Positions 26 through 12,525 of a stretch of 13,757 bases of DNA are shown here, piece by piece. The notes under the pieces are model-generated. The model was not told the origin of the DNA. It was given only the letters and a program-made list of their open reading frames with translations, and made no database searches. A program made the translations under genes and the position numbers. How positions within the stretch are numbered: the stretch's first letter is position 1; each line of letters begins with the position of its first letter. The stretch comes from a virus: UHGV virus genome UHGV-1765841. One strand, written 5' to 3'.

Positions 26-1819
26 TCACGCATACTCCCAAATGATTGCAATACCAGCCATTCCGCTACCTCCGGCACGCTGCTGCGTCGCTCCACCGTA
101 AACACAGGCACCACCGCCTCCACCACCATGGCCATTGGCATTAATACCTTCGCCTACAATGGCTTGTGACCCGGCCCCCGCACCAAGGATTGAATCGCCG
201 CCAGGCCCACCAATCGCCAGACTGCCAGAAAACCGAACGCCTGGTGAGCTATAACCACTTCCAGACCCGATAATATTGGCACCTGTAAATCCCGGCTCAG
301 TATATGCTCCATACGGACCCACAACCCCAGGAGTAGTACCTTCAGCAAGAACATTCCCACCAAGACCACCTTTGGCAATTATGGTATTACCGAAAGAGGT
401 TGTTCCCCCGGGAGCACCAACCGACGCACTAACACCAATACCGCCATAACCGATAGTCACTGTCGTTACGGCTGGATTATCCACGCGAGCTTTAACATAC
501 TCCCCGGACATTCCCCCGCCACCACAAGCCGCATTATTGGGATAACCGACCTGACAACCACCACCGGCACCACCACCACCAACGATTTCAACAATAATAA
601 ATTTTGTGCCTTGCGTCGGAACGTATGTACCTGAACTTTTAAACACCTGACACTTTATCAGTCTTCCGGAGCCATCGCCCAAACCAAGGTAATCAAGAAC
701 CCCCTGTGTGCTTGTCTTGCCAATAATGGCGCGTCCAACACTTGTCAGTGCGGTTAGCGCAGCACGATCTGCCCCTGTAAAATAAGGGAGTTTATCTGCT
801 GATGTAGCAAGTCCTGCCAGCGCCGTCAGGGTGGCATCCTTCGGTTGCTTACCCGCAAGCGCGTTAGTCATGGTTGTAGCAAAATTCGGGTCGTTACCCA
901 GCGCCGCCGCCAGCTCGTTCAGCGTGTTCAGTGCTTCAGGTGACGAGTCTACAAGTGCGGTAATCGCGGCCATAACATAAGCCGTGCTTGCGATCTGAGT
1001 ATTATTAGTACCCTTTGGCGCTGTTGGCGTTGTTGGCGTTCCGGTCAGTGCCGGGCTGTTTAATGGCGCTTTTTTATTCACTTCATCCATTACCGTCTTA
1101 ACAGCTTTTGGCGTTGCTGCCAGCGTTTCAGACGTGCTGTTTGTGGCGCTACTGAGTCGAACAAGGCCTTTTCGTGCCGTAGTCGCATCCTGAGCGGTAT
1201 ATTTTCCGTTAGCCAGGTCATATGCAGCCTTAACCGCTTTCGGTGTTGCGGCCAGTGTTTCAGATGTGCTGTTGGTTGCACTGCTTAACTGAGTAAAACC
1301 TTTTGCGGTCAGCGAGGCGTCCGGGTGACGTCGTGACTTTTCGTGCTCAGAAATTTTGTCATCCACATATTTACGTGTTGCCAGTACCACAGCCGGGTCG
1401 ATTTTCAGCGTGATGGCTTCGGTGTTCGTGACAACCAGAATCATGCGGATAGTCTGGGTGCGGCCACTGCCTTCCTGTAACTGCGGTTTGTACGTTTCCG
1501 GACAGTTCGCTACCGCAATGAGTACGCCTTCATCATCATAAAGCCCAATCTCACGTATCCAGAATCCGCCCTCGTTCTCAGGGATGATTTGCTCCGCAAT
1601 AATCTGGCTCTGGTTGTTCGGATCAACGCTCAGAAGATTCAGCGGCGCGATGCGTTTCTGGTTAATCAGCTTTGTCTGTGCCGGGTCTGGTGTCGGTAAG
1701 ACACCATTCGCATCACCAACGGCCATTTGCGTCAGATTCAGCTTACTGCCGAGCATCGTCGCGTTAGCCAGCCGTGCTGCGCCCTGATTAGTCAGAATGG
1801 CGTAGTATTTCACTGTCAT
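26..1819 (-). CDS. H: Tail fibre protein, P2 gpH-like; conserved N-terminal tail-collar/shaft region (about residues 1-380) fused to a divergent glycine-rich C-terminal region
   Basis: 597-aa ORF with ATG at 1819 overlapping the gpI stop (ATGA). N-terminal part matches P2 gpH as I recall it, including the duplicated LSSATNSTSETLAATPKAVK motif. C-terminal ~215 aa is Gly-rich (GGGGAGGG, HGGGGGG runs) and unlike P2 gpH. Stop TGA at 26-28. Confidence 0.9.
   Translation of the reverse strand: MTVKYYAILTNQGAARLANATMLGSKLNLTQMAVGDANGVLPTPDPAQTKLINQKRIAPLNLLSVDPNNQSQIIAEQIIPENEGGFWIREIGLYDDEGVLIAVANCPETYKPQLQEGSGRTQTIRMILVVTNTEAITLKIDPAVVLATRKYVDDKISEHEKSRRHPDASLTAKGFTQLSSATNSTSETLAATPKAVKAAYDLANGKYTAQDATTARKGLVRLSSATNSTSETLAATPKAVKTVMDEVNKKAPLNSPALTGTPTTPTAPKGTNNTQIASTAYVMAAITALVDSSPEALNTLNELAAALGNDPNFATTMTNALAGKQPKDATLTALAGLATSADKLPYFTGADRAALTALTSVGRAIIGKTSTQGVLDYLGLGDGSGRLIKCQVFKSSGTYVPTQGTKFIIVEIVGGGGAGGGCQVGYPNNAACGGGGMSGEYVKARVDNPAVTTVTIGYGGIGVSASVGAPGGTTSFGNTIIAKGGLGGNVLAEGTTPGVVGPYGAYTEPGFTGANIIGSGSGYSSPGVRFSGSLAIGGPGGDSILGAGAGSQAIVGEGINANGHGGGGGGACVYGGATQQRAGGSGMAGIAIIWEYA
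1097..1288 (-). repeat. Imperfect direct repeat inside H encoding the duplicated 20-aa motif LSSATNSTSETLAATPKAVK
   Basis: Two about 60-nt copies (about 1097-1156 and 1229-1288), period 132 nt, roughly 85 percent identical at nucleotide level; both encode the identical 20-aa peptide (H residues 178-197 and 222-241). Confidence 0.8.
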
Positions 1820-2427: not shown

Positions 2428-3328
2428 CCGAGCCTCCGGTCACAACGCTGTATTCGGTACAGAAAGACGCCTGCGTATTGTTGAGCACGATGTCGGCCAG
2501 TGGTGCAGCCAGTTCGACACGCTGCACGCCTTCCACATGCAAAGCGGCATAAATGGCAGACAGACGGATGTCGCGCCCCAGCCGGTGCTGTGCCGTGATG
2601 TACGCTTCCAGTTTTTTCACGGCAGCAGCGCGGATGGGTTCGCTTTCGGGACCAGGGTAAAGGTAAAGCGTGGCGTTTATCTGGTATTCAACGATGGCGG
2701 CAGACTGCACGGTCACGCGGTCGGCCACCGGCCTGACGTCCTCGCCATTAAGGGCGTTACGCACCGCCGCCAGCAGGTCTTCGGATGCCACACCGTTATT
2801 TTCGCGAGACAGCACGGAGATGGTGACGCAGGCCGGAGAAGGGCTGGTGACAGAGATATCTGCGACACGCCCGTCGGCACTGCGACCATGATACTGATAG
2901 GCACCCACCGACCCGGCGACGCTTAAACCTTCAAACGCCTGCTGAATACGCAGACGATAATCGGTGTCAGATTCCATCACTGCCGGTGTCGGCGGGATGG
3001 TCGAATCATCTGCCGGGGTGATAGTCAGGCGCGTGGTGTTGTAATTGGCACCAATCACATCAAGGTCATTACCGGCGGCACAGGCCAGCATCACCGCCCG
3101 TGCGGCCTCATTCACACGCTGACGCCAGATAAGCTCACGATAAGCATTTTCCTCCAGCAGTTTGACGAGAGGCTCAGATTCCAGCGTCAGGGTACGGGCG
3201 ACCGCCTCCTGCTGGTCTTCCGGGTAAAGGGAAATCAGTGTCGCCTTGCGTTCAGCGAGAATGGTTTCAAAGTCCAGCTCCTCGACCACATCCGGTGCGG
3301 GTAGCTGGTTCAGGTCGATAATCGGCAT
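2420..3328 (-). CDS. J: Baseplate assembly protein gpJ (baseplate wedge, gp6-like)
   Basis: 302-aa ORF, same length as P2 gpJ, ATG at 3328; recognised by sequence similarity to P2 J; gene order W-J-I. Confidence 0.93.
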   Translation of the reverse strand: MPIIDLNQLPAPDVVEELDFETILAERKATLISLYPEDQQEAVARTLTLESEPLVKLLEENAYRELIWRQRVNEAARAVMLACAAGNDLDVIGANYNTTRLTITPADDSTIPPTPAVMESDTDYRLRIQQAFEGLSVAGSVGAYQYHGRSADGRVADISVTSPSPACVTISVLSRENNGVASEDLLAAVRNALNGEDVRPVADRVTVQSAAIVEYQINATLYLYPGPESEPIRAAAVKKLEAYITAQHRLGRDIRLSAIYAALHVEGVQRVELAAPLADIVLNNTQASFCTEYSVVTGGSDE

Positions 3329-4312: not shown

Positions 4313-4378
4313 AACGGGAAGGATGCCGCCGGGTCATACCGGCGGCAATGTGACGATGAGGTGTCGGGAATGGCACAA
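4313..4378 (-). promoter_or_regulatory. Putative late promoter region upstream of V (P_V-equivalent)
   Basis: 66-bp gap between S and V, where P2 has a late promoter for the V-W-J-I-H-G operon. On the - strand the gap contains TGTGCCATTCCCGACACC (plus-strand 4360-4377), a partial TGT...ACA dyad. Promoter elements not confidently assigned. Confidence 0.35.
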
Positions 4379-4831
4379 CTAACGATCGAGGTGAGTCAGG
4401 ATAATCTCTTCAATCATCTGCACATCCTCACCGGTAAAGCCGAGCAGAGGGCGCGCCGGATAATCAATTTTCTTACCGTCTTTCCGGGTTTCTTCCGACA
4501 GACCAAACTGATGCACACTGGCGATTTTCGGTGACTTCCCGCCGTAAAATTCCATTGATGCCTGTTCCGGGCTGGCGCGGATATGCAAAAAACGACTGGT
4601 GATAAGTTTCGCAAACATTTTTCGCTTAACACGACCAGTCTTTTTTCTGGCGCTCTGCTGCTGGCGTGGCGCGTAGGGTGTGCCGTCCGGGGCTTTCTGA
4701 GCCATCACCCGACGCTGCTGACTCTGCCGCAGACGTTTCGCCAGTTCGGCACTCAGTCGCCGACGCCCTGACGGTGACAGCGACTCAATCAGTCCGGTCA
4801 GCCGGTCTTCAAAACGCTTAAACTCATTCAT
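4379..4831 (-). CDS. S: Tail completion protein gpS (virion morphogenesis)
   Basis: 150-aa ORF matching P2 gpS in length and sequence; ATG at 4831; overlaps the R stop by 8 nt. Confidence 0.9.
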   Translation of the reverse strand: MNEFKRFEDRLTGLIESLSPSGRRRLSAELAKRLRQSQQRRVMAQKAPDGTPYAPRQQQSARKKTGRVKRKMFAKLITSRFLHIRASPEQASMEFYGGKSPKIASVHQFGLSEETRKDGKKIDYPARPLLGFTGEDVQMIEEIILTHLDR

Positions 4832-9724: not shown

Positions 9725-10579
9725 TCAGCAGTTCGTCATCAGGGCGTCACCGCCACCACCGGTGGCCTTGCTGCGGCGCTGCTGGGTCAGACTTTCGGTG
9801 TGGTCGAGACTGTTTTTCAGGCGGGTGAATGCCTGACTGGTTTCATCCGCCCTGTCAGTCACATCCTGCTTAAGTGCGGAAAAGGCGTTTTCCATCTCAG
9901 CGAGGCGCTGCTCAGTGGCGCTCAGTTTTTCCTGCACATGTTCAGCGACAGCGGTCACCGCTTCATGCACGTCATTCAGACGGGCGTCATCGCTGGCCTG
10001 TTTGCGGCCAAAAATGGATTTCACCTTTTCGGTCAGGGCGGTGAACACGGTTTCAGGCAGGTCTTCAAATTCCAGCTCAACAGGCGTTGCCACTGAAATC
10101 AGGTTTTCAGGGCTTAATTTGAAGCGGTTCAGAGGGTTGTGTTTTGCCGTGCGGCAGAATTCCAGGTATTCCGTGCCGAGGCTTGCCGGGTCATCGGTGA
10201 CGGCCAGACCCACCAGATAACATTTGCCGGTGTTGGCAAAGTTCGGCTGAATTTCCATTGAGGTGTAGACCTTCTGCGCGGCCTTGTTCATCGCGATAAG
10301 GTCATCGGTCGGGGTGATTTTCGCAAACAGCGCCCATTTGCCTTTCAGCGCCGAATCATCGTCAATCTTTTCGGCCTTCAGTTCGACCACATCGCCATAA
10401 CGCTTAAAAATACCGTCAGGCAGGATGCCGCGCAGATGTTCCAGGTTAATGCGGCAACCATAGACTCGCGGGTCAAAGGTTTCGGCCATTTCCTGAATAT
10501 CCTGCGCACTGATGACACGCCCGTCACAGGTGTCACCCTCAACGCCGATACGAAAGAATTTTGAGACTTTTTTTGCCAT
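9725..10579 (-). CDS. O: Capsid scaffolding protein gpO (scaffold/protease)
   Basis: Six-frame ORF 9725-10645 trimmed to ATG at 10579 (AGGA upstream), giving 284 aa (MAKKVSKFFRIGVEGDTCDGR...), the size of P2 gpO. Confidence 0.9.
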   Translation of the reverse strand: MAKKVSKFFRIGVEGDTCDGRVISAQDIQEMAETFDPRVYGCRINLEHLRGILPDGIFKRYGDVVELKAEKIDDDSALKGKWALFAKITPTDDLIAMNKAAQKVYTSMEIQPNFANTGKCYLVGLAVTDDPASLGTEYLEFCRTAKHNPLNRFKLSPENLISVATPVELEFEDLPETVFTALTEKVKSIFGRKQASDDARLNDVHEAVTAVAEHVQEKLSATEQRLAEMENAFSALKQDVTDRADETSQAFTRLKNSLDHTESLTQQRRSKATGGGGDALMTNC

Positions 10580-10752
10580 TGTCAGGAGTCCTGAATAGTG
10601 ATTAGAGGAGTCACATGTCGGCATCAGTTTCCCGACGATGCGCATCCTCCGCCATCAGTCCCGGATGGCTTATCACTGACACAACAGCACCTTAGCGAAT
10701 CGCGGGGCGCGACTCAGTAGCCTTGCCGTGTATTCATCACGGCGAGGTATTC
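10580..10752. promoter_or_regulatory. Divergent late promoter region (P_O leftward and P_P rightward in P2 terms), expected to be Ogr/Delta-type activator dependent
   Basis: 173-bp intergenic region between divergently transcribed O and P. Contains a perfect 13-nt palindrome tcaggagtcctga (10582-10594) and the inverted repeat GTCGG-N10-CCGAC (10617-10636). Exact -10/-35 elements and start sites not resolved by eye. Confidence 0.5.
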
Positions 10753-12525
10753 ATGACCATCACCACAGACACCACTCTTTTACACGACCCGCGTCGTCAG
10801 GCGGCGCTGCTGTACTGGCAGGGATTTTCCGTGCCGCAGATTGCCGCCATGTTGCAGATGAAACGCCCGACGGTGCAGAGCTGGAAACAGCGCGACGGCT
10901 GGGACAGCGTTGCCCCCATCAGCCGTGTCGAAATGAGCCTGGAAGCGCGGCTGACCCAGCTCATCATCAAACCGCAGAAAACTGGCGGTGACTTCAAGGA
11001 AATTGACCTGCTGGGACGCCAGATTGAACGACTGGCACGGGTAAATCGCTACAGCCAGACCGGCAACGAGGCAGACCTTAATCCGAACGTCGCTAACCGC
11101 AACAAAGGCGGGCGGCGCAAACCGAAAAAGAATTTTTTCAGTGACGAAGCCATCGAAAAGCTGGAGCAGATTTTCTTTGAGCAGTCTTTCGACTATCAGT
11201 TGCACTGGTATCGCGCCGGGCTTGAGCACCGCATCCGCGATATCCTGAAATCCCGCCAGATTGGCGCGACATTTTATTTTTCCCGCGAGGCGCTGCTGCG
11301 CGCCCTGAAAACCGGTCATAACCAGATTTTTCTGTCGGCCAGTAAAACGCAGGCGTATGTGTTCCGCGAATACATCATCGCCTTTGCCCGTCTGGTTGAC
11401 GTTGACCTGACCGGTGACCCGATTGTCCTGGGCAATAACGGCGCAAAACTGATTTTTCTCGGCACCAACTCCAACACCGCGCAGAGCCATAACGGCGACC
11501 TGTACGTCGACGAGATTTTCTGGATCCCGAATTTTCAGGTACTGCGTAAGGTGGCATCAGGTATGGCCTCACAGAGTCACCTGCGTTCGACCTATTTCTC
11601 CACCCCGTCCACGCTGGCGCACGACGCCTACCCGTTCTGGTCGGGTGAACTGTATAACCGGGGACGCGCCAGCGCCGCCGAACGCGTGGAAATCGACGTC
11701 AGTCATAACGCCCTTGCCGGTGGGCTTCTCTGTGCGGACGGCCAGTGGCGACAGATTGTCACCATTGAGGACGCCCTGAAAGGTGGCTGCACGCTGTTCG
11801 ACATTGAGCAGCTCAAACGCGAAAACAGCGCCGACGATTTTAAAAACCTGTTCATGTGTGAATTTGTTGACGACAAGGCGTCGGTGTTCCCGTTCGAGGA
11901 GCTGCAACGCTGCATGGTCGACACGCTGGAAGAATGGGAAGACTATGCACCCTTTGCCGCCAATCCGTTCGGCTCCCGCCCGGTATGGATTGGTTACGAC
12001 CCGTCACACCGTGGCGACAGTGCCGGATGCGTGGTGCTGGCACCGCCGGTGGTGGCCGGTGGCAAATTCAGAATACTTGAGCGTCACCAGTGGAAAGGCA
12101 TGGACTTTGCCACTCAGGCTGAATCCATCCGCAAACTCACCGAAAAATACAACGTCGAATACATCGGTATTGATGCCACTGGCCTCGGTGTCGGCGTGTT
12201 CCAGCTCGTGCGCTCGTTCTATCCCGCCGCGCGCGACATCCGCTACACGCCGGAAATGAAAACCGCAATGGTGCTCAAGGCAAAAGACGTCATCCGCCGT
12301 GGCTGTCTGGAATATGACGTCAGCGCCACCGACATCACCAGCTCGTTTATGGCTATCCGCAAGACCATGACCAGCAGCGGACGCAGCGCCACCTATGAGG
12401 CCAGCCGCAGCGAGGAAGCCAGCCACGCCGACCTCGCCTGGGCAACCATGCACGCCCTGTTAAATGAGCCACTCACCGCCGGTATCAGCACTCCGCTGAC
12501 ATCCACCATTCTGGAGTTTTACTGA
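10753..12525 (+). CDS. P: Terminase large (ATPase) subunit gpP
   Basis: Six-frame ORF starts at TTG 10723 without a Shine-Dalgarno; trimmed to ATG 10753 (GAGG at 10744-10747), giving 590 aa (MTITTDTTLLHDP...), the size of P2 gpP. Stop TGA overlaps the Q start (TGATG). Confidence 0.93.
   Translation: MTITTDTTLLHDPRRQAALLYWQGFSVPQIAAMLQMKRPTVQSWKQRDGWDSVAPISRVEMSLEARLTQLIIKPQKTGGDFKEIDLLGRQIERLARVNRYSQTGNEADLNPNVANRNKGGRRKPKKNFFSDEAIEKLEQIFFEQSFDYQLHWYRAGLEHRIRDILKSRQIGATFYFSREALLRALKTGHNQIFLSASKTQAYVFREYIIAFARLVDVDLTGDPIVLGNNGAKLIFLGTNSNTAQSHNGDLYVDEIFWIPNFQVLRKVASGMASQSHLRSTYFSTPSTLAHDAYPFWSGELYNRGRASAAERVEIDVSHNALAGGLLCADGQWRQIVTIEDALKGGCTLFDIEQLKRENSADDFKNLFMCEFVDDKASVFPFEELQRCMVDTLEEWEDYAPFAANPFGSRPVWIGYDPSHRGDSAGCVVLAPPVVAGGKFRILERHQWKGMDFATQAESIRKLTEKYNVEYIGIDATGLGVGVFQLVRSFYPAARDIRYTPEMKTAMVLKAKDVIRRGCLEYDVSATDITSSFMAIRKTMTSSGRSATYEASRSEEASHADLAWATMHALLNEPLTAGISTPLTSTILEFY

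Follow-up and report, generated by a model that had tools for sequence, protein, structure and literature searches.

The divergent late promoter region of P2-type phages belongs to a known system, and the activator site, the transcription starts and the -10 elements have already been mapped in P2 and in coliphage 186. Activation of late promoters of the P2/186 type requires Ogr, B or Delta together with the C-terminal domain of the RNA polymerase alpha subunit, and the activator of this family recruits RNA polymerase through the alpha subunit. At the level of translation, attenuators of the de Smit and van Duin type are hairpins that sequester a Shine-Dalgarno sequence. A consensus TGT-N12-ACA for the late promoter activator site of P2/186-type phages is given in PMC3931495, and the inverted repeats of such promoters are described as centred at about -55 in PMC3152322. 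The DNA analysed here (13,757 nucleotides from virus genome UHGV-1765841, referred to below as the window) contains a region, 10580-10752, that is the divergent late promoter region of a P2-type phage.

The identity of the region was established by alignment. The intergenic sequence between P and O (10580-10752, 173 bp) corresponds base for base to P2 2994-3166, and coordinates were converted by subtracting the P2 position from 13746. The 551 bases around the region matched 106 phage records, 83 of them at 99% identity or higher (including P2, WPhi, L-413C and fiAA91-ss). Escherichia phage S164 was identical (100%) over 10430-10900, and the identity of the window to P2-group phages was 99.4-100%. 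In the ORF map, the late genes are arranged in the order of P2, reversed in orientation relative to the P2 map: the tail-fibre gene H (26-1819, minus strand) is followed by I, J, W, V, S, R, the lysis genes, X, L, M, N and O; P and Q, which come after O, have the opposite orientation. The O gene (capsid scaffold/protease) starts with the ATG at 10577-10579 (minus strand; P2 O CDS start at 3167), and its translation start (MAKKVSKF...) is invariant among the homologues. The P gene (large terminase, plus strand) has its Shine-Dalgarno sequence GAGG at 10744-10747 and its ATG at 10753-10755 (P2 P CDS start 2993, converted to 10753). The region is thus located 5′ of two divergently arranged morphogenetic operons (O onwards, and P and Q), as is typical of the family. 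With respect to P2 (NC_001895/AF063097), no difference was found here in the whole intergenic sequence, the gene order, the starts, the shared activator site or the -10 elements; elsewhere the window lacks orf30 and carries a different P_V, and its S-V junction is of the WPhi/L-413C type. Every property of the P2/186 late-promoter family that was checked on the sequence was present, including homology to mapped promoters and spacing. A sequence-only reading of the window had proposed a divergent late promoter region between O and P, and the identity to the annotated P2 region bears this out.

Transcription starts and the activator site were transferred from the P2 RefSeq annotation. P_O starts with a G at 10619 (minus strand; O operon start 3127), P_P starts at 10730 (plus strand; P operon start 3016), and the activator binding site annotated for the pO and pP promoters (feature 3057-3087) falls on 10659-10689. 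Within this site lies an Ogr-type core common to both promoters, TGG-N12-ACA (10666-10683; TGT-N12-CCA when read in the O direction), which is one mismatch away from the published consensus. Its centre (10674.5) is 55.5 bp from the start of P_O and likewise from that of P_P, in agreement with the position of about -55 described for the family. The record of 186 on its own annotates a B-protein site, TGGACAACCGCCCACACAAC, at the homologous place between pV and p12. An exact search of the window for TGT-N12-ACA gave 0 matches, and with one mismatch allowed 54 matches were obtained versus 61 expected, so that the motif has no discriminating power. Since it cannot locate sites by itself, the assignment was made by annotation or position together with conservation. 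When P_O, P_P, P_V and P_F of P2 and P_V of the window were aligned on their starts, TGT was found at about -64 to -62 in all of them. P_O and P_F of P2 (L001, 3053-3085, and L171, 3055-3083, respectively) both carry GTTGTG-N9-AGCCA-N-CCGGGAC, a likeness that extends beyond the TGT/ACA half-sites.

An alignment of seven phages (P2-type, 186, PSP3, EtG, Klebsiella ST147-VIM1phi7.1, ENT4 and Yersinia YenM31.17) showed as conserved blocks the activator half-site, both -10 elements, CCTTAGCGAA and the O translation-initiation region. The half-site CACAACAG (10680-10687) was invariant. The -10 element of P_O is GAAACT (-12 to -7; 10626-10631, minus strand), contained in AGTTTCC (10626-10632), which was invariant as well, as was the -10 element of P_P, TAGCCT (-12 to -7; 10718-10723, plus strand). 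The block CCTTAGCGAA (10690-10699, plus strand), located between the activator site and the P_P -10 element at about -40 to -31 of P_P, was strongly conserved. Neither promoter has a -35 consensus and both -10 elements are weak, as in the family. A scan for sigma-70 consensus promoters found none in the interval from one start codon to the other, in line with promoters that depend on an activator and have no -35 element; its sole match (10585-10558, minus strand) starts in the palindrome described below and extends into the O coding sequence. The ogr gene is absent from the window, and the presence of the activator is therefore assumed. According to the resulting scheme, a single zinc-finger activator (Ogr in P2, B in 186) bound at the central partial dyad would serve both promoters from -55.5, P_O driving the leftward O-N-M-L... 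operon and P_P the rightward P-Q operon, neither with a -35 element and both with a weak -10. The promoter positions of this scheme rest on the database annotation of mapped sites and on conservation, and the activator dependence on established knowledge.

The spacing was surveyed in a larger set of loci. A first gpO scan of viral contigs gave only loci of 99-100% identity and was replaced by bacterial assemblies with one genome per species, from which 80 loci and, after processing, 77 distinct usable intergenic regions from Enterobacterales prophages were obtained. The activator half-site was kept in these 77 regions. The distance from its TGT to the P_O -10 element was 52 bp in 76 of the 77, and the other end of the activator site was separated from the P_P -10 element by 52 bp in 56 regions and by 53 bp in a further 15. 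The P_O -10 element read GAAACT, GATACT or GACACT in all 77 regions, and TAGCCT was found in 71 of the 72 regions in which a P_P -10 element was located. The pV/p12 region of coliphage 186 (identity to the window region approximately 79%) has the same architecture, with TGG-N12-ACA at the homologous place, a palindrome of the O type at the ribosome-binding site and both -10 elements; it differs in a leader that is 8 nt shorter and in a GTCGG-N10-CCGAC dyad (see below) reduced to GTC...GAC.

With the promoters placed, the alignment to the mapped P2 promoters that the sequence-only reading had proposed as a check could be read directly: the intergenic sequence is identical, a palindrome flagged near O falls in the O 5′ UTR, and a flagged dyad falls in the P_O core promoter. 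The palindrome, TCAGGAGTCCTGA (10582-10594), is perfect (6+1+6) and occupies +26 to +38 of the 40-nt O leader on the minus strand. It had been described as lying 3-15 nt 5′ of the O start codon and as including AGGA, and these coordinates are exact. The mRNA sequence is UCAGG-ACU-CCUGA, with AGGA (10592-10589, minus strand) in the 5′ arm, 9 nt before the AUG. Palindromes with 6-nt arms and a gap of at most 3 nt were found in 12.7% of dinucleotide shuffles of the 173-bp region, so its occurrence as such is not beyond chance; it is nevertheless the only one of the three flagged motifs that is supported by comparison with relatives. P2, 186, PSP3, EtG and the Klebsiella phage all have the palindrome, and ENT4 has it with one loop-side change. 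In the seven-phage alignment the leader just 5′ of it diverges, with an 8-nt indel, while the palindrome stays. An Rfam search of 10450-10850 returned no family at E ≤ 1, and a literature search for a hairpin at the O ribosome-binding site found nothing relevant.

The sequence-only reading had further suggested that a 5-bp hairpin could form over the O Shine-Dalgarno sequence in the mRNA, and the palindrome does fold as proposed in the predicted structure of the real leader, in which the Shine-Dalgarno sequence is base-paired. Like attenuators of the de Smit and van Duin type, the O leader thus has its Shine-Dalgarno sequence in the 5′ arm of a stem-loop by the start codon; compared with them, its stem is much weaker, occlusion is not unusual, no trigger is known and covariation is absent. 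The O palindrome does not qualify as a characterised Shine-Dalgarno-sequestering regulatory hairpin. Our conclusion is that the palindrome represents the O ribosome-binding site together with a weakly self-complementary spacer. Its 3′ arm would pair with the 5′ arm containing the Shine-Dalgarno sequence in a weak hairpin, most likely damping or tuning O translation only mildly; that such a mild tuning role is real appears possible but doubtful. In prophages of Acerihabitans (L140, L147) the O leader is unrelated, and its Shine-Dalgarno sequence lies in a possible hairpin with a 5-bp stem and a 3-nt loop (GGAAG-CCG-UUUCC), although the MFE structure prefers another fold.

Two stronger readings of the palindrome were weighed against a ribosome-binding site with a self-complementary spacer. 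The UCAGG/CCUGA hairpin might be a selected translational attenuator that sets the output of the gpO scaffold relative to the capsid protein N. The hairpin is present in both the MFE and the centroid structure of the leader, and the local 23-nt fold over the palindrome gave z = -2.2; its predicted stability is only -4.0 kcal/mol, however, and the leader as a whole was not unusually structured (z = -0.9). Opening of the O Shine-Dalgarno sequence was calculated to cost 6.4 kcal/mol, versus 2.0 kcal/mol for the open initiation region of N, a point in favour of an attenuator, but the values of the other 16 genes tested span 2.0-8.1 kcal/mol and thus include that of O; neither stability nor occlusion was clearly above background. 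CCTGA was retained in 25 of 38 distinct prophage initiation regions of the CAGGAC type, with variation at the loop base (T in 14 of them, A in 10, G in 1) and in the 3′ flank; a G-U variant was present in one further region. Column entropy was 0.56-1.30 bits in the 3′ arm, 1.1-1.7 bits in the upstream leader and 0-0.18 bits in the Shine-Dalgarno sequence; the 3′ arm varies less than its flanks, a difference left unexplained if the palindrome is purely incidental. Paired cells amounted to 69.4% versus 64.6% in shuffles, a value reached by 0 of 500, although this excess could stem from shared ancestry, and the covariation score was reached by 39 of 500. Compensatory double changes were not seen among the prophage leaders, in which the 5′ arm never varies; because this arm is fixed as the Shine-Dalgarno sequence, no compensatory change is possible. 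The hairpin is also lost in lineages of Serratia, Pectobacterium, Brenneria, Rahnella and Yersinia. On balance, a selected attenuator is a possible reading that we hold only tentatively.

The other reading takes the palindrome as a DNA operator for a dimeric protein at +26 to +38 of P_O, acting as a roadblock or as a repressor. A perfect 6+1+6 palindrome, conserved as DNA apart from a free central base, would suit such a protein, but the left arm is already accounted for by the Shine-Dalgarno sequence, and a search of the P2 genome gave no second copy with one mismatch or fewer. A multi-copy operator is ruled out by this uniqueness in P2, we know of no P2 regulator that uses a palindromic site of this kind, and an operator of any sort is highly improbable. 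Taken more broadly, the palindrome as a selected element, whether an attenuator hairpin or a site for an unknown factor, that sets gpO dosage relative to N across a large P2/186-like clade is rather unlikely. To our knowledge, a selected palindrome over the O Shine-Dalgarno sequence that sets gpO dosage has not been described before.

The second flagged motif, the dyad GTCGG-N10-CCGAC, had been given the correct coordinates (10617-10636) together with a possible role as activator site for rightward transcription of P. This role does not hold: the dyad coincides with -17 to +3 of P_O, around the -10 element GAAACT, and the annotated activator site is 10659-10689. Its centre (10626.5) is 103.5 bp 5′ of the P_P start, so that it cannot be a -55 site for P, and its form is GT-N16-AC, unlike that of an activator site for P_P. 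Only its last 3 nt are transcribed, and hence no RNA hairpin is formed. The left block lies 5′ of the P_O -10 element, and the right block comprises the C-rich discriminator and the start site. Dyads with 5-nt arms and a gap of at most 12 nt averaged 2.1 per dinucleotide shuffle of the region, and the dyad is thus not beyond chance. A protein-binding element at this place, be it another activator site or an operator that overlaps the P_O core promoter, would be in keeping with the wide conservation of both arms, which many prophages carry as GTCGGG-AAACTNNN-CCCGAC, and with Buttiauxella prophages that have GTCAGG...CCTGAC, which looks compensatory. Several other lineages, however, pair GTCGGG with CCTGAC and so offset the Buttiauxella case. 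Pairing of the arms was 73.6% versus 73.6 ± 0.8 in the shuffled control, and covariation among the prophages was not significant (score reached by 87 of 500 shuffles). In the 186-type phages the dyad is reduced to GTC...GAC, and in PSP3 nothing of it is left. The dyad does not resemble TGT-N12-ACA, and it lies at about -103 from P_P. A second activator site or operator was rejected on position and on the absence of covariation; such an element is very improbable. The arms are best read as two core-promoter blocks that flank the P_O -10 element and are probably constrained independently of each other.

The 8-mer TTCCCGAC occurs as exact matches at 10629-10636 (plus strand) and 4363-4370 (minus strand). 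Both positions had been given exactly in the sequence-only reading, which regarded the 8-mer as possibly part of a common activator site while noting that chance sharing was not negligible. The caution was justified: at least one common 8-mer was found in 28.6% of shuffled region pairs (dinucleotide shuffles). The suggested function was not, the P_V copy lying in a spacer that is not conserved and the sharing being within chance. The probable activator site of P_V covers 4360-4379 (minus strand) and consists of the half-site GTTGTGCCA with TGT-N12-ACC (4377-4360); the 8-mer (4370-4363) is in the variable spacer that separates the half-sites. Of these, the left one, GTTGTG(C/T)CA, is kept in the Klebsiella phage, ENT4 and R18C, whose spacers differ, and the 8-mer is not conserved in P_V of these three phages or of P2. 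The other copy overlaps the P_O -10 element on the opposite strand. If TTCCCGAC were a sub-site recognised at both the P-O and the V promoters, the two copies in the window, versus 0.55 expected, and the location of one of them inside the P_V activator region could be explained; two or more copies, however, were also present in 18 of 200 whole-window shuffles, and chance matches are common between shuffled pairs, as stated above. The copies, moreover, differ in position and orientation relative to the starts (-57 to -50 of P_V; -17 to -10 of P_O on the other strand; -101 to -94 of P_P), and the spacer comparison effectively refutes a shared sub-site, which we consider barely credible. The sharing of the 8-mer is a coincidence. 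The motif truly common to these late promoters is GTTGTG(T/C)CA, which is located on the minus strand at 10685-10677 and 4379-4371.

Some further features of P_V were recorded. P_V of the window (4313-4379, minus strand) differs from that of P2 and is probably ancestral; it has a -10-like CATCCT at 4325-4320, and transcription is predicted to start at about 4313, a position 1 nt upstream of the V ATG (4312) that would make the V mRNA essentially leaderless. In agreement with this, the P2 RefSeq record places the start at the V ATG. A GC-rich hairpin of 8 bp, GCCGCCGG/CCGGCGGC (4325-4346, minus strand), lies at about -33 to -12, between the P_V activator site and the -10 element. Its conservation extends to the Klebsiella phage, ENT4 and R18C, in the last with one compensatory change from C:G to T:A. 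As no U-run follows the hairpin, it does not represent a canonical terminator of the O operon upstream.

Other repeats and ORFs were noted in the P-O intergenic region, where 10 five-nt inverted-repeat matches were counted versus 2.1 expected; 0.1% of shuffles had at least as many. The sequence GATGCGCATC at 10637-10646 is a perfect 10-bp palindrome, and GCCATC-N7-GATGGC (10651-10669) overlaps the TGG half-site. At 10721-10747 (plus strand) lies a 10-nt inverted repeat, CCTTGCCGTG/CACGGCGAGG, the right arm of which covers the P Shine-Dalgarno sequence GAGG (10744-10747). Its left arm corresponds to -9 to +1 of P_P and is therefore outside the mRNA if transcription starts at 10730; if a transcript started further upstream, the repeat would form a strong hairpin occluding the Shine-Dalgarno sequence. 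A 26-codon ORF (10615-10695, plus strand; MSASVSRR...) is located behind AGGAG, antisense to the P_O core. As a gene it is probably spurious, and it is not conserved in the 186-type phages.

Taken as a whole, it is highly probable that the region is the P_O/P_P pair with one central activator site, in which the palindrome is the O initiation region, the dyad consists of core-promoter blocks and the 8-mer is a coincidence. As to the earlier interpretation of this known system, it is partly supported, two of its points being right and two wrong, and the value of the analysis is mainly corrective, since two of the flagged motifs had been given wrong functions. For P2-like phages, the spacing of 52-53 bp from one site to two promoters represents a rigid design that helps in the annotation of P2-like prophages, and the conserved palindrome at the O ribosome-binding site provides a small, testable lead on the control of scaffold dosage.
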